A program made the translations under genes and the position numbers. Shown in pieces: positions 6,244-57,856 of a stretch of 64,000 nucleotides of DNA. Origin of the DNA: Aggregatilineales bacterium (lineage in GTDB: Bacteria; Chloroflexota; Anaerolineae; Aggregatilineales; Phototrophicaceae); the NCBI GenBank assembly GCA_044226855.1, contig JBGAGF010000013.1, forward strand, positions 95,507 through 159,506. The letters run 5' to 3'. The notes below the pieces were generated by a model. It was not told the DNA's origin, did no database searches, and saw only the letters and a program-made list of their open reading frames with translations. The first letter of the stretch is position 1; every line of letters starts with the position of its first letter.

Positions 6244-6411
6244 TAATAAAACCTCTGACCGTGATCATGGTACGTCAAAAGTATAGCCATAAAAATATAA
6301 ACCAACCACTAATAGTGCTCAAGGAAGATCGACTTGAAAGCCGTTCATTTCTGGATTTTGATGGTGCCATCAATTATTCGTAACAAGGTTTACTTTGGGG
6401 TTGTCGGCAAA

Positions 6412-6800
6412 CCGTTTCCTAACCCTGCCGCAACCTCGTGCAGAAAATCCTCCCTCACAACGTTAGTGCCACCGGCTTGAAACAGTTACAAAATGTTCTT
6501 CCAAAATGTAACCCGCTACTTTCCTATATGTCGTATGCTCTTTGTAGGGAAAGATGGTTCTTGCCCCTGCAGCGCGCTAACGGGTTAGGCATCACGACTT
6601 TGTCCCACCGTATTTGTATTGGACTAAAGACTGGCTATTTGGCAAAGCTGGCGGCGGACACTCCCCTGCTACGTTTGCCAAAAAACCGGCGGATTCTCGG
6701 CTAAAGCACGTACAAAAGTCATCAAAATGGGCTAATTGCCGCCATCGCCGCCAAAAAATTTGCCAATTTCGCCACCGCCGTTGTCGATCACCTGCCCATT
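6412..6800 (+). repeat. dispersed non-coding repeat, copy A (31-nt conserved core at 6484..6514)
   Basis: Core AGTTACAAAATGTTCTTCCAAAATGTAACCC is identical to 42776..42806 and is the reverse complement (2 mismatches) of 24005..24035. Flanks are recognisably homologous to copies B and C. Confidence 0.7.
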
Positions 6801-21242: not shown

Positions 21243-22490
21243 TCACCGCCAGTTCTCAATGGTATCTTTTAACTTCTGCATGAATGTGTCACCTGTTGCG
21301 CCATCGGCTACACGATGATCGAATGTCAGCGTCACATAGCAGCAGGGGCGGATCGCGATCATGTCGTTAATGACCTTGACGCGCTTTTCCATTACGCCGA
21401 CACCGAGGATTCCGGACTGTGGCTGGTTGATAATCGGCGTTGCGAATAGACTGCCGCTCACACCGTGATTGGTAATCGTGAATGTGCCGCCTTGCACCTC
21501 ATCACTTTTGAGTTGTTTGCCTCGCGCCCGTGCTGCTAGATCATTTACGGCTCGCGCCATGCCTATCAGGTTCAAATCGCCTGCGTTCTTAATGACCGGC
21601 ACAATCAAACCATCATCAATCGCCACGGCAATGCCGAGGTTCACTGTGCTGTGCAGGAAAATACCTTCGTCCGTCCACTGCGCATTTAGATAACGTTGGC
21701 TTTGCAGTGCTGCAACGGTGGCCACCGCCAGATAAGCGGTCAGCGTCAAATTGACTCCTTGCTTAGCAAAGGATTCTTTGTTCGCCTCTCGATGAGCCAT
21801 CACGGCGGACATATCGAACTCGAATACCGTCGTGACGTGAGGTGCAGTTTGCAGCTTGCTCCGCACCATATGCTCAGCGATGGTTCGCCGCATCGCGCTC
21901 AACGGCATCAATTCTCCCGCGCTCTGTGGCACGCTGGCTGGCGGACGGGGTTGCACAGGGATTACTTCAGCCATTTTCAGTTGTTTGTCTTCTGCTTGCA
22001 CGGCCTTGCTTGTAGGGAGGGCGTTAGAGGGTGGGGGCAGTGCCAGATAGGCTTCAACATCTTTCTTTGTGATACGACCATCACGTCCTGTGCCGGTAAT
22101 CTGTGATAAATCGAGATGATGTTCAGCCACCATTCGCGCAACGACCGGCGACACATAACCGGTATATTCCACCACATGTCCATTACTTACGGACGCTTGT
22201 TGTAGGGATATATGGTTATCGGTCCGCGTTTCGATACGGGCTTCTGTTTCCTTGGCCTCGCCGATCACCGCTAGGCACACGCCTGCCGTCACCAATTGTC
22301 CGACCGGAGTCATAATTTTCAGCACCACGCCGCTAATAGGCGCAGGAATTTCAGTGTCAATTTTGTCGCCGCTGACTTCGAGCAGCGGATCAAACTGTTC
22401 GACGTGCTCGCCTTCCCGCTTTAGCCACTTGCTAACAGTGCCTTCACTAACGCTGTCACCAAGCTGCGGCATAATCACTTCAGTTGGCAT
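21243..22490 (-). CDS. 2-oxoacid dehydrogenase complex E2 component (dihydrolipoamide acyltransferase)
   Basis: N-terminal lipoyl domain (EVIMPQLGDSVSEGTV...SGDK), linker, and catalytic domain ending in DHRVADGA. Confidence 0.85.
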   Translation of the reverse strand: MPTEVIMPQLGDSVSEGTVSKWLKREGEHVEQFDPLLEVSGDKIDTEIPAPISGVVLKIMTPVGQLVTAGVCLAVIGEAKETEARIETRTDNHISLQQASVSNGHVVEYTGYVSPVVARMVAEHHLDLSQITGTGRDGRITKKDVEAYLALPPPSNALPTSKAVQAEDKQLKMAEVIPVQPRPPASVPQSAGELMPLSAMRRTIAEHMVRSKLQTAPHVTTVFEFDMSAVMAHREANKESFAKQGVNLTLTAYLAVATVAALQSQRYLNAQWTDEGIFLHSTVNLGIAVAIDDGLIVPVIKNAGDLNLIGMARAVNDLAARARGKQLKSDEVQGGTFTITNHGVSGSLFATPIINQPQSGILGVGVMEKRVKVINDMIAIRPCCYVTLTFDHRVADGATGDTFMQKLKDTIENWR

Positions 22491-22663
22491 GTATCCTCAC
22501 CATAACATTATTTTTAATGAATGCTTGCTTCTACAACCTCTTTTTACAACATTTTTGGATACCTTGCACGGTCTATTAAGCATTGTCTCAGCGTAGCTAT
22601 CCCGTCCGGTACAAGATGAGTAAATCATTTAAGCTAGAGTCACAGACTACGAAAGGAAATGAA

Positions 22664-23578
22664 ATGAAGCTCATACAGATGGTGTTTTGTGCAGTGGTGC
22701 TGACGCTGCTGACACTTAGTTCCGCGATGGCCCAAGATGAGCCAGATTATCCGCTTGACTTTCCGGTGCCTGAACTTACAGATGCCCAACTGAAAGAGGC
22801 CCGAGCGTGTGATTTGCAGGCCAAAGCTGCATCCACAGTTTCTAAACCAACTGCCTGTCAACTGGCGCAGCGGGCATTAGCGCTTGCCAAAACCAGAGGC
22901 GACAACAGCAAGCCTGATGACAAAGAACTCGAATTAATCAAGCAGATCACTGCACTCAATCCCGCCTTACTCTTACGTCTCGATATGATCGTTCAATACT
23001 TTGGGGCGATACCCCTGATTGCACCACCTGACTTTGCGACTAAACCCATCACCAAGTTGACGCTCAAATACACCTTCAGCGGTCTAGGAGCCAGTGTGGA
23101 TTATGACATTACCATCGCCAACGCTGATAAATCACCAGTGGTGGCTGGAAAAATTAAGACGGATAGTTCATTTGAGTCAGACAATACCAAGCCAACCGCT
23201 ACGCCTGTGCCTTTGCCCAAAACCGTCGATGTGGGTGTCGTGCAAGCCTTTGGCTCTGCTCTGTCGGATTTTCTGCCCATCCAAACCCAATTTAGCAGCA
23301 CACCGTGTTGGGACTATTACCCCGACTGGACTATCGAGCTAACTTTTGCTGATAAAACGACGCTTACATTGGTCACCAAAGACTCTAACGTCGTTGGAGT
23401 CGGTGGGCCATGGCAAACCGAGATTGACGGCAAATTCTATATGCAGTATTCGGCATCCCTACAGGTGGCCATTGGAGATCTGTTCAAAGCCCTTGATCTC
23501 AAATTTGGTGAGACGGCTGCAATGGGCTGCGGCGGCATCAATGACCCGCTTGACGACGCGTATCCGCCACACACATAA
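22664..23578 (+). CDS. secreted hypothetical protein
   Basis: Start MKLIQMVFCAVVLTLLTLSSAMA (signal peptide). No recognisable domain. Confidence 0.5.
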   Translation: MKLIQMVFCAVVLTLLTLSSAMAQDEPDYPLDFPVPELTDAQLKEARACDLQAKAASTVSKPTACQLAQRALALAKTRGDNSKPDDKELELIKQITALNPALLLRLDMIVQYFGAIPLIAPPDFATKPITKLTLKYTFSGLGASVDYDITIANADKSPVVAGKIKTDSSFESDNTKPTATPVPLPKTVDVGVVQAFGSALSDFLPIQTQFSSTPCWDYYPDWTIELTFADKTTLTLVTKDSNVVGVGGPWQTEIDGKFYMQYSASLQVAIGDLFKALDLKFGETAAMGCGGINDPLDDAYPPHT

Positions 23579-23849
23579 GATTTGTCATTTGGGATACGAA
23601 GAATTTGAAGACGCTGAATCAGGGTTACGGGAGAATCTTCGCGAAATTCTTCAGATTCTGCATTTTCACTGTGCAGTTTGGCTTTTGGCAGTTATCGATT
23701 GGCTTTCGCTCCGGACAACGAGATGATATGTCGACGTTGGCATCTGTTTAGGCATGTTGGGCTGCTTCTACGACATCGGTTGAAATGGTTGATGTGTCAG
23801 AAACGTCGTCAATGTTAGTATTCCATCGATACCGCGTTGGAGGTGTGCT

Positions 23850-24090
23850 CATAAAGCAAAATTGGCAGCAATTTCGGCAAATCTGGCATGCCAATTGTGG
23901 AAATTTGCAGCGATTGATGGTTGTTACAATGCGCTTTGGAGAATCGACCGCCGGCAAACACCTAAGAACATCATAGCTTATTTGAGGAAAGTGTGGGTTA
24001 CCTTTTGGAAGACCATTTTGTAACTCATTTGCAGCTTGGACACAAACTTAACAGCCGAGGTTGTTAGGAACAGGGTATATGGACGGTTTC
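23850..24090 (-). repeat. dispersed non-coding repeat, copy C (core at 24005..24035, minus orientation)
   Basis: Reverse complement matches the 31-nt core with 2 mismatches. Flanks share ACTTTCCT, CCTAAC..AACCTCG and TAACAACC.TCAATCG.TGCAAAT blocks with copies A and B. Outer limits are uncertain. Confidence 0.6.
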
Positions 24091-24239
24091 AAAACGGTTT
24101 GCCGACAAACCAGAATTAAACTTATTGTCGATAATCGTATAGAAGGTCGAACAAAATGAGCCGAATATCCCTCTTGTCAGTTCATGGAATGTCCTTCACA
24201 CTACAAAGAGAGATTCACGTCATGGGATTGAGGTAAGTC

Positions 24240-41717: not shown

Positions 41718-41853
41718 AAGAATTACTTTCGAAACCTGTTAACTTGGATGCGGTCAGGGGCAAGCATACATGAATGAGGAAAAGGCTGGAAGGATAGGTC
41801 GTAGTTCAGTATTAGATGTTGAGTTTAATTTTGGTTGAGGGTGTTTAAAAAGG

Positions 41854-42237
41854 TCAAAGACGGGAAAGACGACGGAGGACGAGAGCAGTCATGGCGAGAA
41901 AAATAAAGGTGCGAGAAGAAGAAGTGAGAAACTCGTAATCCTTGCTCAGACGACGATAACGACCGAGCCAAGCAAAAGTACGTTCAACCACCCAACGGGA
42001 AGAGAGAACCTGGTGGGGTTTGGCAAATTGTGAACGTTGCTCAATTTGGAGACGAATATGCAAGCGGTTCTGGATGGTTTGGTAGAGCGGACCGCGATAG
42101 CCTTTGTCGACCAAGACTGTGGCCAAACGCGGATACTGGGTTTGTGCCTTATGCAATAAGGCCAAGACGGGACGACGATCATCAACGTCGGCGGCGGTCA
42201 GCAGCACCTGCATCAGCAAACCTTGAGTGTCGACCAA
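41854..42237 (-). CDS. IS5 family transposase orfB (DDE C-terminal part)
   Basis: VLVDKGYRG...RWVVERTFAWLGRYRRLSKDYE is the conserved IS5-family C-terminus. Probably expressed via a -1 frameshift from orfA. Confidence 0.8.
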   Translation of the reverse strand: MVDTQGLLMQVLLTAADVDDRRPVLALLHKAQTQYPRLATVLVDKGYRGPLYQTIQNRLHIRLQIEQRSQFAKPHQVLSSRWVVERTFAWLGRYRRLSKDYEFLTSSSRTFIFLAMTALVLRRLSRL

Positions 42238-42284
42238 CAGATGCCGTTTGCGGCCGGTGACATGCTTGTAGCCATCCCAGCCTT

Positions 42285-42632
42285 TCAGCCCCCTTTTTCA
42301 GTCGTTTTGACCGACTGGCTATCCAGTATTGCTAACCACGGACTGGCTTCTTTTCCCTGGTGCTGGCGCAGCATCTCGTGCAAGGTCTGATACAGCTTTT
42401 CCCAACTCCCATCCTCGCGCCAGATGCGAAAGTAGTAATACACACTCTGATAAGGTGGAAAGTCATGGGGCAGCATCCGCCACGAGCAACCACTGCGCAA
42501 CACATAACGCATGGCGTTGATTATGGCGCGCATCGAATATTTGCGCGGTCGTCCGCCACCCGGATTCGGAATCATGCCTTCCAAGATTGCCCATTCTTTA
42601 TCGCTCACATCACTTGGATACTGTTTTTTCAT
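42285..42632 (-). CDS. IS5 family transposase orfA (N-terminal part)
   Basis: WAILEGMIP...RPRKYSMRAIINAMRYVLRSGCSWRMLP is typical of the IS5/IS427 group N-terminus. Confidence 0.8.
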   Translation of the reverse strand: MKKQYPSDVSDKEWAILEGMIPNPGGGRPRKYSMRAIINAMRYVLRSGCSWRMLPHDFPPYQSVYYYFRIWREDGSWEKLYQTLHEMLRQHQGKEASPWLAILDSQSVKTTEKGG

Positions 42633-42696
42633 CTTTTCCTCCCTTTATTCCCTCTCTTTTACCTCCTTTACCCTTTTTAAACACGCTCTTTGTTGG

Positions 42697-43500
42697 GTTA
42701 ACCCTTTACCAACCATCCATCAACCTGAAGAAGCGGCTGTCTCGCTCATTTACGTTAGAGCCAAACCCGCAAACGAGTTACAAAATGTTCTTCCAAAATG
42801 TAACCCCTTTGCGTATCAGTTCCCTTACAATAGACGATAGGATTGGCTGTAGGGATTTGCCGCTGGCAAATCCTCACACTGGCAAACCCCTGCTGAAACC
42901 AAATCCAACCGCATCTTAACAACCGTCAATCGTTGCAAATGTGATAAAAAAGACCGTTTCTCAACTGCAATATTTTCAACATTTGCCACACAGCTAGCGT
43001 AAATGTCACCACAAAACGTGTGTTGTTTCCGCCGCTTGTGCTGCTTTTGCCGCATATTCCGCATTAACTACGGTTCACTGCCCTTGATGCACTCAAGCAA
43101 TAGGCTGAGCTACTGACTGATTGACAACGACTATGCCGACATTTTCGACATCGAAAACACTTGGAATTTGTGGATCTTGCGGTTTTTGCAGTTTTTCGCA
43201 TCTCAAATGGTGAATGGTCGGGGGAATAGCCAATCACAAAAAGTAAAATATTCTGAATCTGAAGAATCCGACGAATTTTCTGAATCAAAAAGGAGTGAAG
43301 ATGAACCATGCTCCGCCGCCATCGCCGCCGCCAAGAAAGTTGTTGCCGCCACCGCCATCTCTTGTATTCGGCTAACGACTGAAGACTTATCATATGGCAA
43401 TCTTGGCGGCGGACACTCCAACAAGCTTTTGCCGCATTTCTAGCCGAACGTCCCGCCGAATTGCCGATAAATTTGCCAAAAACAGGGGGTGAAATTGTCA
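42697..43500 (+). repeat. dispersed non-coding repeat, copy B (core at 42776..42806), extended version
   Basis: Identical 31-nt core. Shares ACGTTAG.GCCA, TGTAGGGA, TAACAACCGTCAATCGTTGCAAAT, TGGCGGCGGACACTCC and GCCGCCATCGCCGCC blocks with copies A and C. Starts about 9 bp after the IS5 right end. Confidence 0.65.
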
Positions 43501-53640: not shown

Positions 53641-53780
53641 ATCTCTTGTCTCTCCACAATATCAGGTCAAGTCCAGCTGTCGCAGCGGATGTGAGGGAGT
53701 GAACCGCCGAAAATGCAAAAGCAAAAACAGTTGAACCGCAAAGACGCAGAGAAAGAGGAGAAAAAGATAAAATCATCATA

Positions 53781-54697
53781 GGAATATGGTAGTGGTTGCA
53801 AAGTAAGTGATGGTGGATAAAGATCTGCCACATGATCGAAGAGACTACCAAATACTCGTGTCGATCATGCGGCAGTGAGCCTATTATACGCAACGGGCAC
53901 AATAAATGCGGGAGTCCGCAGTACAAGTGCAAAGCGTGTGGTGCCTGCCGCGTGTTGACACCGAAAATCAAATATACGCAGGAACAGAAAGTCACCATTT
54001 TGCGTGCTTACCGGGAACGGATCAGTTTACGCGGCTTACAGCGCGTGTTCGGTGTATGGCGCACTACCGTCTTGCGCTGGTTAAAGGCGTGGGTGGCATC
54101 CCTACCATCATTGCCCGAAACATTGCTTCCGGTTCAAGCGACCGATGTGCTGGAACTGGATGAACTGGTGAGTTTTGTGTCCGAGAAGTTCTTCAAACGC
54201 TGGTTGTGGCTGGCCATGTGTCGTCGAACGCGCCAGATTGTGGCTTATGCCATCGATGATCGCTCCGAAACCACGGCGCAGAAGCTCTGGGAAATGCTTC
54301 CCGACAGCTATCGAAGTTGTCCCATGTACACAGATGAGTACGATGTTTATCCACGTATTATCCCACTTGAGCAGCATCGGGCGGCCCCCAAAGAGGCACA
54401 TCAGACCAATCATCAAGAGCGTTGGAACAATACGCTCCGTCAGTGGGTCGGGCGATACACTCGCAAGTCCTTATCTTTTTCCAAGGAGGATCTGTACCAT
54501 TCTCTCGTCACTCATTGGTTCATCCTCGAATACAATCTTCGTATTCGATCATCACTTACCTTGTGACCACTACCAGGAATATGGTGGTGGTCATTTGGTA
54601 AGTGATGATTGAACCCTCACCCCTAGCCCCTCTCCCTCAAGGCGAGGGGAACTAAACAAGTTATCACTTACTATGCAACCACTACTAGGAATATTGT
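53781..54697 (+). mobile_element. IS1 family insertion sequence (single fused InsAB-type ORF)
   Basis: Inverted repeats with core TAGTGGTTGCA(A/T)AGTAAGTGAT at 53781..53815 and, reverse complement, 54661..54697. An extra direct partial copy of the left end lies at about 54573..54608. Confidence 0.6.
53832..54566 (+). CDS. IS1 family transposase (InsA zinc-finger/HTH fused to InsB DDE domain)
   Basis: N-terminal CRSCGS...CKACGA zinc finger. C-terminal ...YTDEYDVY...ERWNNTLRQWVGRYTRKSLSFSKE matches the IS1 InsB signature. Confidence 0.8.
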   Translation: MIEETTKYSCRSCGSEPIIRNGHNKCGSPQYKCKACGACRVLTPKIKYTQEQKVTILRAYRERISLRGLQRVFGVWRTTVLRWLKAWVASLPSLPETLLPVQATDVLELDELVSFVSEKFFKRWLWLAMCRRTRQIVAYAIDDRSETTAQKLWEMLPDSYRSCPMYTDEYDVYPRIIPLEQHRAAPKEAHQTNHQERWNNTLRQWVGRYTRKSLSFSKEDLYHSLVTHWFILEYNLRIRSSLTL

Positions 54698-56260: not shown

Positions 56261-56500
56261 CGACAACAAACTGAATTGATTATGCCGCAACTCGGTGACA
56301 GCGTGAGTGAAGGCACTCTCAGCAACTGGCTTTAGAAGGCGGATCAATCCATTATCAGATAGACTTGGTTGATGGATAAGTATCGTCTGGAAGGTTGTCT
56401 ATGCTGCCGCAATAGATTGCTATTGATTTGCTCGATACACTGGACTGTGTAATTCGCTTGGACTTGAAAGAAAAGCCAATTGCTATATCCTAAGAAGCAT

Positions 56501-57856
56501 TTAGCGATTGTGGAACGGATTTGCGGAGATCTGGCGAATTAGTGTGTGTATGCCAACAGCGGTTAGCAGGGCAGCGATGGGATATAGGGCTAAATAGTAG
56601 CGCTGCCAAGGCAGAGGATTAATTAGCAAGGTAACGACGACAACTGCCAACCAGACCAGCACGCCGATTTCCCGTGTTCTCCATCGGGGCAGGAGGGAGA
56701 TAAGGCCAATGAGTGCAAGTAAGGTGAGTAATCCACCGGTCACGACGCCTGTGTGAAGTCCGCTTAAAACTGAAGCATCATATTGGGCGATTTCAGCCTG
56801 TACGGGGGCAACGCCCGCCCAGAACTCGACCTCATAATAGACTGGCGCTTGCATATAGGGCTGCGTCACAATTCCGCTGATCCGGTCGCTGATAGTGGTG
56901 GGCGCGGTTGGTTCGGCCTTGACCTGTGATTCCAGCAGCTTTGCTCGTTCGCTGATGAGGTCGCCAAATCGCTCAAGCGGATTATTCCATTGGGCAGGCG
57001 ATAGGGCGATAAACAGCGCCACCATGATGACCAGTGCTGTCACAACTTTTGTGAGTGTCTCAAATGCGCTTGTTTCTCTGCGTCTCTGCGGTTCAAACCG
57101 TATTTGCATCTGTCTGACCACAATCCATCCGAACGCCGCTGCCACAAATACAATCCCGCTGTGCTTGCTGGCGAATGTCAGTCCACCTGCAATGCCGAGC
57201 GCCAGCCACCAGCGCCAACTCTTGCGACCTTTGCAGATCAGGATTGCTATCAAGATGACCAGCAGCCCGAAACACAACACCGAGCCTTCCATCATGGCTC
57301 GCCGCCCGTTGAGTAAGATTATTGGATTGAGGGCGTATAAGCCACTTGCAATGAAGGCTACCAACCGTCCGCGAACCTGCCATCCAATCTCGAAGAGGAC
57401 TGCCGCGCTGAGGGCAAGAAAGAGCGCCGATGAAACGCGGCTGACGTTGAGCATAGCCTGTTCAGGGCGGCTTCCGCGCGTGACATTGTCGTCGTAGCTC
57501 AACGGCCACTGCCACAAAGGAGGTAGGGTCTGCTGGCTGTAGCCTGCGGCTTGCAAACTGAAACCAACGGTATACAGATTGATCGATCCGTTGATGAGGC
57601 GCAGCAGAGCAGGGCTGTCGACGATATAGGGCGGCATCACCAGAAGGGCTTGTGGTTGACGATCGACAAACAGGGTGAAGTAATCACGGCTCATAGTGAT
57701 CTGCATAGCTTCATCACCATGAAAGGGCACGGTCGTGATACCTGCGAGGATGTAAACCGCTAATGCCAACAACCAGAAGGCATCCAACAGTGAAAACCGT
57801 GATTTGGATGACGGGACATGTTGGCTCGGCGGTTCAACCATGGTTTGCATATGCAT
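56501..57856 (-). CDS. GT-C fold membrane glycosyltransferase (PMT/ArnT-like, GT39/GT83-like)
   Basis: Multi-TM protein with a conserved first-loop motif VPFHGDEAM. Resembles polyprenol-phosphate-sugar dependent glycosyltransferases. Confidence 0.5.
   Translation of the reverse strand: MHMQTMVEPPSQHVPSSKSRFSLLDAFWLLALAVYILAGITTVPFHGDEAMQITMSRDYFTLFVDRQPQALLVMPPYIVDSPALLRLINGSINLYTVGFSLQAAGYSQQTLPPLWQWPLSYDDNVTRGSRPEQAMLNVSRVSSALFLALSAAVLFEIGWQVRGRLVAFIASGLYALNPIILLNGRRAMMEGSVLCFGLLVILIAILICKGRKSWRWWLALGIAGGLTFASKHSGIVFVAAAFGWIVVRQMQIRFEPQRRRETSAFETLTKVVTALVIMVALFIALSPAQWNNPLERFGDLISERAKLLESQVKAEPTAPTTISDRISGIVTQPYMQAPVYYEVEFWAGVAPVQAEIAQYDASVLSGLHTGVVTGGLLTLLALIGLISLLPRWRTREIGVLVWLAVVVVTLLINPLPWQRYYLALYPIAALLTAVGIHTLIRQISANPFHNR

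Follow-up and report, generated by a model that had tools for sequence, protein, structure and literature searches.

A promoter-like cassette is the conserved unit of a stand-alone intergenic repeat family in Aggregatilineales

Intergenic repeats such as enterobacterial REP/BIME sequences (the REPIN-RAYT system), BOX elements and the Correia elements of Neisseria measure about 40-300 bp, and their conservation takes the form of hairpins or terminal inverted repeats; the pneumococcal BOX element is organized as boxA-boxB(n)-boxC, and Correia elements can carry promoter activity. Known multi-copy small RNA (sRNA) families, in turn, comprise 2-12 copies in which the RNA itself is conserved. Here we describe a family that lies between mosaic intergenic repeats and multi-copy sRNA genes, and that differs from both in that conservation rests on the promoter rather than on the transcript or a hairpin. 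It was followed up from a 64,000-nucleotide stretch (the window) of an Aggregatilineales bacterium, contig JBGAGF010000013.1 of assembly GCA_044226855.1, positions 95,507 to 159,506, in which a preliminary description had noted three repeat copies, here called A, B and C. Copy C, our focus, proves to be a real if partly decayed representative of this large and undescribed stand-alone intergenic family in Aggregatilineales (Chloroflexota).

Like REP/BIME, BOX and Correia elements, the family is intergenic, modular and present in many copies, contains GTAG-headed palindromes as REPs do, and coincides with hot spots of insertion sequence (IS) integration and rearrangement. Unlike them, it is built as a directional promoter cassette of ~190 bp within an element of ~300-900 bp, and no link to a RAYT or other transposase was found nearby. 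With Listeria LhrC1-5 (which have UCCC loops), the Anabaena NsiR1 repeats and cyanobacterial Yfr2 it shares the apparent plan of a stand-alone unit, in which a promoter is followed by a noncoding body and often an intrinsic terminator; it also shares a C-rich CTCCCTCAAA motif near the 3' end and a single promoter type in all copies, which implies co-regulation. In contrast to those sRNA families, there are at least 15 to 26 copies per genome, the promoter is conserved and the RNA is hypervariable without covariation.

Two further systems invite comparison. The non-autonomous elements derived from IS200/IS605 (PATEs) likewise lack terminal inverted repeats and target-site duplications, carry hairpins near both ends and are strand-biased in orientation, but at the ends of our family no conserved target tetranucleotide or cleavage motif was found, the hairpin sequences vary, conservation is strongest ~100 bp inside the element, and no Y1 transposase was detected nearby. 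Promoters with UP elements, of the Escherichia coli rrnB P1 type, also have two A-tracts 13 bp apart with T-rich sequence between them, upstream of a sigma-70-type -10, and a noncoding product. The family departs from these in having no -35, in a near-invariant stretch of 28-31 bp with GTnAC arms that exceeds the known requirement of the C-terminal domain in RNA polymerase's alpha subunit (alpha-CTD), in ~100 more conserved bp upstream, in its tens of copies, and in fast-evolving bodies instead of rRNA or tRNA.

Results

The core of copy C, AGTTACAAAATGGTCTTCCAAAAGGTAACCC (the reverse complement of 23995-24025), agrees with the cores of copy A (6484-6514, plus strand) and copy B (42776-42806, plus strand) at 29 of 31 positions, as first described; the coordinates then given for it, 24005-24035, were 10 nt too high. 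With up to three mismatches allowed, chance alone should yield no core (none arose in 100 dinucleotide-preserving shuffles), and a family profile (nhmmer) finds exactly three copies in the window, at 6369-6556 (plus), 42689-42844 (plus) and 24136-23957 (minus), with E values of 1e-32 to 1e-41. The other strings quoted for copy C were all found in the window as well: AGGAAAGT, the reverse complement of ACTTTCCT, at ~23985-23992; CAGCCGAGGTTGTTAGG at 24052-24068; AAATTTGCAGCGATTGATGGTTGTTA at 23901-23926, with its counterpart in copy B at 42917-42945; and the palindrome TGGCATGCCA at 23884-23893. This palindrome is real, but it arises where TGGCA and TGCCA abut and occurs exactly in only 1 of 177 family bodies, and is thus incidental rather than a family feature. 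The range originally assigned to copy C (23850-24090) lies correctly, but the whole element, cassette plus decayed noncoding body, extends over ~23590-24147 on the minus strand, more than twice that length. It fills most of a gap of 661 bp (23579-24239) whose longest open reading frame (ORF) has 69 codons and whose two flanking genes are both on the plus strand, in agreement with the preliminary description.

The family is large. An exact-pattern scan of species-representative genomes gave at least 99 loci, all in six Aggregatilineales/Anaerolineae metagenome-assembled genomes (MAGs), which hold at least 26, 19, 19, 18, 15 and 2 loci each among the matches listed. The anchor CTCCCTCAAAANNGTTANNGCCAA, an upstream segment outside the core, retrieved 109 further metagenome contigs, and a scan of viral contigs for the family returned 0 matches. 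The family is so far confined to Aggregatilineales/Anaerolineae, and its abundance rules out the earlier proviso that no further copies might exist elsewhere. The 99 profile matches fall in 99 loci; with one core per locus and no repeat array, a CRISPR leader plus repeat is ruled out. We found no description of the family in the literature on Aggregatilineales repeats, Chloroflexi noncoding RNA or the motif, and searches of Rfam 15, at gathering and E-value thresholds, with the window, 18 loci, copy C, a full type-I element (L009) and a type-II element (L102) returned only tRNA matches or E > 1.

Conservation in core-anchored copies, measured as information content, ends sharply at about -115 and +65 from the core start, and nothing is conserved outside these limits. 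Within this ~190-bp cassette, an alignment of 100 copies shows a constant order of parts: a tATTAt boundary, a hairpin region, a C/A-rich spacer with CCAACC repeats, CTTAACAAT and CTCCCTCAAAA, then GTTAgcGCCAAC, AAAGA, the core, 21 nt, and T-A-n-n-n-T. The hairpin region exists in four unrelated sequence versions, each of them self-complementary. In copy C the cassette occupies 23957-24147 on the minus strand (nhmmer 106 bits, E = 3e-32; limits from the information-content profile and family alignments), and the hairpin version, as read from the sequence, is GGTTTG-TCGG-CAAACC followed by GTTTT (24096-24111). The profile envelope itself runs from 24147 to 23951.

Downstream of the core the cassette has the look of a promoter. 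In 143 of 144 copies, hexamer positions 1, 2 and 6 read T, A and T, always 21 nt past the core (TATGAT, TATCAT, TACACT, TAAACT, TACAAT and similar), although no search pattern included any of these positions; in a metagenome set selected neither on the core nor on the -10, their conservation is still 90% or more. A conserved aTAGG (an A/GGG start) follows 5-10 nt after the hexamer across the family, and a sub-group carries an extended -10, TGTGCTAnnnT. TAnnnT is probably a sigma-A-type -10, with transcription predicted to start at A/G. In copy C the hexamer is TATGAT (23970-23975), exactly 21 nt past the core end, and the putative start is the A/G of TTAGG (23962-23963).

The core of 28-31 bp consists of two tandem 13-bp units, TT(A/C)CAAAATGT(T/A)(C/A), each with an A-tract, set between GTnAC inverted arms; the units are TTACAAAATGGTC / TTCCAAAAGGTAA in copy C and TTACAAAATGTTC / TTCCAAAATGTAA in the main form. 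With the -10 placed at -12 to -7, the core falls at a predicted -61 to -34, its A-tracts (AAAA) at -56 to -53 and -43 to -40, and the T-rich TG(T/G)TCTT between them at -52 to -46. The E. coli UP-element layout has A at -57 to -54, T at -53 to -47 and A at -44 to -41 (PMC5664571), so that the tracts of the core lie within 1 bp of it, a match of layout only.

Copies gathered independently of the core reveal how it varies. The exact core is present in 44 of the 104 copies of the core-unselected metagenome set, and the remainder differ at 1-8 positions, in variants that are uniform within a lineage and different between lineages. One such variant, GTGACCAAATGTTCTGACAAATGTTCACC, was found on at least eight contigs of one sample, with both units (TGACCAAATGTTC / TGAC-AAATGTTC) and both arms altered together. 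The outer GTnAC arms also change in step (T3/A26 to G3/C26; A6/T23 to C6/G23), but many copies are intermediates with a mismatch (A/G, for instance, makes up 18%), so the data fit a dyad or tandem protein site and a weak hairpin alike. Because the core is uniform within lineages and changes between them, we infer that it co-evolves with a trans-acting partner, for which the RNA polymerase alpha-CTD and an activator, alone or together, are candidates. At one locus (L187, metagenome contig APMI01157973.1) the core has shrunk to GTTACAAAATGTAACCC, with one 13-bp unit lost. Candidates dropped for lack of fit include sigma-54, extracytoplasmic function (ECF) sigma and T7-like promoters; NtcA, CodY, cre, TyrR and PhoP boxes; DnaA 9-mers; a TnpB/IscB omega-RNA scaffold; a site-specific recombinase core site; and a 9-nt identity of the AAGGTAACC variant with the 16S rRNA 3' region.

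Comparison between species separates the core from the rest of the element. Among the loci there are at least 30 orthologous pairs, with flanks ~75-85% identical, and in the three pairs that were aligned identity is 100% in the core and ~80% in the remaining cassette, and large indels and cassette swaps set the bodies apart. The core and -10 thus appear to be held by purifying selection or very local conversion, since cassette and bodies drift around an identical core, and the transcript seems largely free to change.

The family is independent of its neighbour genes. Across ~100 loci, the upstream neighbour is divergent in 45 cases and co-directional in 42, the downstream neighbour convergent in 50 and co-directional in 41, and the first long ORF typically lies 300-600 nt away with noncoding sequence between. 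A co-oriented ORF of at least 150 codons within 330 nt follows only ~16 of 212 copies, and several of these ORFs encode IS701-, IS4- or IS3-type transposases whose elements had inserted at that place. Clustering of 781 ORFs within 2.5 kb of the 212 copies revealed no consistently adjacent family and no RAYT/Y1 transposase; the sole recurrent neighbour, at 5 of 208 loci, is an IS5-like transposase that lies upstream and points the other way. The convergent gene that copy C faces and the random orientation of neighbours across the family speak against a riboswitch or 5' leader. An autonomous element or sRNA, not a cis-regulatory leader, had been favoured from the outset: the self-contained unit stands, since copy C brings an invariant -10 of its own, set at a constant spacing from the core, and the family occurs in all four neighbour orientations, but a conserved RNA does not, there being no conserved secondary structure, covariation or Rfam match. 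In two species (L028, 5633-7543; L086, 1330-3000, minus strand) the cassette precedes a solitary gene with a Phage_capsid domain (Pfam E = 1.5e-10), whose N-terminal part resembles a prohead protease by eye; its upstream neighbours are housekeeping genes, with no obvious prophage.

Beyond the cassette, the bodies are mosaics. Elements are ~300-900 bp long, and a peak of structure lies just past the predicted start, often as a GTAG-headed, REP-like palindrome; GTAGGG or GTACGG plus a hairpin occupies this position in 71 of 177 copies (copy C keeps half of it), and it is thus one cassette within the element rather than the element itself. A CGCACCTTAACAwC block follows 60-150 nt past the core in 74 of 102 copies. 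Other recurring components are degenerate 9-mer arrays (GCnGCATTT, GAAGAATCT, CAACAGCAT; lag-9 identity 0.338 against a background of 0.25), TTTGTATTnGACT cassettes with GACTnnn heptads, a sequence-conserved 3' block containing TTCGGCAnTTCGCTCCCTCAAATCCGCCG and, near the 3' end in 29 of 102 copies, the C-rich CTCCCTCAAA block, conserved in sequence. Many bodies end in GAATCAAAAAGCGGTG...CACCGCTTTT, a hairpin between an A-run and a T-run that would make a bidirectional intrinsic terminator. A second body type, with TTCAGCGG/TTCGGCGG hairpins behind the same cassette, was found at ~14 loci (with CTCCCTC loops in L102). Hairpins are enriched in bodies (229 versus 63 in shuffles). A home-made terminator scan was discarded as too permissive, since its antisense control (93%) scored above the sense strand (72%).

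The body of copy C preserves several of these parts in decayed form, all on the minus strand. Its CAATCG..TGCAAAT and CTTAACA blocks (23934-23901) comprise GCGCATTGTAACAACC and CATCAATCGCTGCAAATTT, which correspond to the family CTTAACA and CAATCGTTGCAAATGTG blocks and match copy B at 42917-42945. Next comes a cassette of GGCA/TGCC words (23853-23893) that includes the TGGCATGCCA palindrome and an array of 9-nt period, ATTTGCCGAAATTGCTGCCAATTTTGC, homologous to, for example, ...CTGGCACAAAACCAACCTTTGCCATTGCCGAAATTGCTGCCAGTTTTGCC at locus L030. The decayed 3' domain (CTGCACAGTGAAAATGCAGAATCTGAAGAATTTCGCGAAGATTC-TCCCGTAACCC..., 23590-23676) was recognized from the 3'-domain alignment and terminator block and is 86% identical to the type-I element L009 over 74 nt; it keeps the GAATCTGAAGAAT block, and its CTCCCTC block (CTCCCTCAAA) is partly deleted or degenerate. 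Homology can be followed to ~23590, which leaves 12 nt before the stop codon of the gene at 22583-23578, a convergent gene at whose 3' end copy C aims. No terminal inverted repeats join the two ends of copy C, nor do any appear in the family alignments. Target-site duplications, which the preliminary description had proposed to look for, were not found as direct repeats flanking 23590/24147, where the 3' boundary is fuzzy enough for short duplications to escape.

The sister copies in the window differ mainly in their bodies. The cassette of copy A spans 6363-6559 (plus), with the -10 hexamer TATGCT at 6534-6539; its body is short, and a TMEM175-like gene follows 324 nt downstream. That of copy B spans 42689-42851 (plus), with TACAAT at 42826-42831 and a long body to ~43500; its upstream hairpin region is interrupted by an IS5-family insertion (41837-42688), with cassette halves on both sides.

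Several observations concern the copy C site in other assemblies. At the orthologous locus of two relatives (L102, 1700-2360; L106, 4950-5240) a different noncoding unit lies on the other strand, with a conserved extended -10 promoter (GAAAATTTGTGCTAyAAT), and in L102 its body is a set of three hairpins that have CTCCCTC loops, with a terminator behind them and no Rfam match; this promoter type was sought in the window and is not present there. To the right of copy C the gene order differs from that in L102, L104 and L106, which have an Fe-S/CCG protein gene and a DinB gene there, and copy C thus sits at a synteny break. The site is also a point where GC skew changes sign. Two short-read contigs of the window species, recognized by a 100% identical flanking protein (L100, 3985-4057; L101, 1715-1788), both end inside the 31-bp core, as is typical of repeats that break k-mer assemblies.

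Discussion

We lean, with modest confidence, towards the reading that each member is a stand-alone transcription unit, in which a -35-less, UP-like and possibly activator-dependent promoter would drive a noncoding, fast-evolving RNA. The core, at about -61 to -34, would dock RNA polymerase alpha-CTDs and/or an activator co-evolving with the lineage; a sigma-A-type -10 placed 21 bp downstream of the core would direct initiation at A/G ~7 nt further on, and the upstream hairpin may insulate the cassette from read-through. Copy C, whose cassette is intact, would fire leftwards on the minus strand from ~23963 into its decayed, repeat-built body and, because the family terminator is missing, would continue into the 3' end of the convergent gene. 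Such a product may serve as a pairing RNA, through its C-rich CUCCCUC sequence, or as a sponge, or the act of transcription may matter in itself.

Several results weigh against this reading. There is no TTGACA-like -35 within 16-19 bp upstream of the -10 (the bases there are ACCCAT, AACCCA or TAACCC), and a simple sigma-70 consensus scan calls no promoter at the copy C site. Copy C also lacks the family GAATCAAAAAG-hairpin terminator, and of the usual 5' hairpin it retains the left half alone (GGTGTTTGCCGGCGG). Its RNA folds no better than shuffled sequence (minimum free energy z of -0.37 sense and +1.34 antisense), and RNAalifold detects covariation neither in the cassette, whichever strand is taken, nor in the 3' domain. 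In the body hairpins, mismatches on the sense strand are A.C in 59 cases and G.T in 30, the opposite of what selection on a sense RNA hairpin would leave, and the element sense strand is C-rich rather than G-rich. The copy C cassette is missing from the orthologous gap in the three relatives L102, L104 and L106, and thus copy C itself may be dispensable. Finally, orientation is not neutral with respect to base composition: in element sense orientation the flanks have negative GC skew at 98 of 119 loci (82%, p = 4e-13), the loci tested being those of L001-L216 that have 3 kb of flank or more. Copies A, B and C all follow this bias, which does not depend on the strand of the genes (57% of coding DNA is carried by the opposite strand). 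Should skew be a marker of the replication strand, most units would face replication head-on, and their G-rich antisense strand would fall on the G-rich strand; the bias suggests either that arrangement or strand-specific insertion. Single-stranded DNA (ssDNA) transposons show such a strand-orientation bias and highly expressed genes do not. Together with the hairpin mismatch pattern, it keeps a mobile or DNA-level reading alive.

The mobile reading holds that the family is a selfish interspersed repeat with an outward promoter and no service to the host, similar to a miniature inverted-repeat transposable element (MITE), a BIME or a PATE, and that it may be mobilized as ssDNA with the help of a Y1 transposase (IS200/IS605 or RAYT-type) encoded elsewhere and working in trans, or have spread by recombination. 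We regard this as possible although rather unlikely, and it is compatible with a transcription unit. The tens of copies per genome, the orientation tied to strand composition, hairpins near both ends, mosaic bodies with GTAG-headed REP-like hairpins in 71 of 177 copies and repeated IS insertion into the family all speak for such a repeat, as does the absence of copy C at the orthologous site in three relatives (one of which, JACDGI, has the family elsewhere), its position at a synteny break and the fact that same-species contigs stop inside the core. However, terminal inverted repeats and target-site duplications are lacking, no transposase or other family is consistently adjacent, viral contigs gave no matches, and uniform conservation is found at the promoter end only. 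The many orthologous sites, with ~80% identical flanks, perfect cores and drifted cassettes, point to host-level purifying selection on the core and -10 rather than recent copying.

Conservation of cassette DNA far above that of anything transcribed could also mean that the DNA itself is the functional entity, as a protein-binding platform (a global-regulator operator array, or a chromosome-organizing or replication site) that acts independently of RNA, with transcription incidental or merely a means. The AACC/GGTT words, tandem units and GTnAC arms fit this idea, as do the CTTAACA and CTCCCTCAAA blocks, which occur both upstream of the start and in bodies, the periodic arrays of 9 and 7 nt in bodies, and the composition-biased orientation. 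Yet the invariant TAnnnT at a fixed distance and the conserved start context look like a promoter, and every site is strictly intergenic and trails a long noncoding stretch, whereas known chromosome-polarity motifs are scattered through genes; the analysis also yielded no candidate for the bound protein, and we consider a platform improbable. Least probable, in our view, is a cis-regulatory leader or promoter of an adjacent coding gene, or a small-protein gene. Copy A does stand upstream of a co-oriented TMEM175-like gene, a few members precede real genes such as the capsid-family gene of L028 and L086, the bodies have 3-nt periodicity, and copy C contains a Cys-rich ORF of 69 codons (23748-23957, minus strand). 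But copies C and B face convergent genes, neighbour orientation over ~100 loci is random, and indels between orthologous bodies break the frame. Open frames in bodies (74 codons) barely exceed those in shuffles (64) and are about equal antisense (70), start codons and ribosome-binding sites are unconserved, and 28 core positions are invariant even at would-be wobble sites; a coding role was rejected on these grounds.

If the cassettes fire, each genome would have dozens of strong, identically controlled promoters for barely constrained RNAs, the reverse of known sRNA families. The pattern points to an unknown regulator or RNA polymerase contact in an uncultured lineage that is abundant in wastewater and soil, and the cassette may be a ready-made strong promoter part for Chloroflexota. 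The family also explains assembly and synteny breaks in Aggregatilineales MAGs, and its orientation bias ties it to replication or ssDNA transposition. The most far-reaching version, which we think unlikely but worth stating, is that tens to more than 100 co-regulated, fast-evolving noncoding units per genome, mostly head-on, are read through their cores by one lineage-co-evolving factor, and so would form either a new RNA regulon or sponge, or a new ssDNA-mobilized promoter-carrying element.

Additional observations

The neighbours of copy C encode an unannotated protein of 331 amino acids and an Emfourin/DUF6438-like lipoprotein, and the closest named relatives of the protein adjoining copy C come from Anaerolineae MAGs. 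The IS5-family element within the copy B cassette (41837-42688) has 40-bp terminal inverted repeats that are 75% complementary, and its transposase is split on the minus strand into a DUF4096 ORF (42285-42632) and a DDE ORF (41854-42237). The bodies of copies A and B share a GACTaAAGACT...GGCAA.CTTGGCGGCGGACACTCC cassette (6622-6664 and 43377-43419, which is 138 and 601 nt past the core start, respectively), and this cassette recurs in L012, L020 and L052/L062 within a long hairpin of GGC/GCC words.

The window also contains other repeat families at 53731-53817, 54544-54685 and 57052-57096, namely GTAGTGGTTGCAAAGTAAGTGAT, which also has inverted copies, and TTGAACCGCAGAGACGCAGAGAAA; loci L102, L013, L020, L022 and L042 contain similar strings. 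A 63-nt inverted repeat (22423-22485 / 56269-56331, 89% complementary) has one arm at the 5' end of a 2-oxoacid dehydrogenase E2 gene (21243-22490, minus strand), and may reflect paralogous lipoyl-domain sequence.

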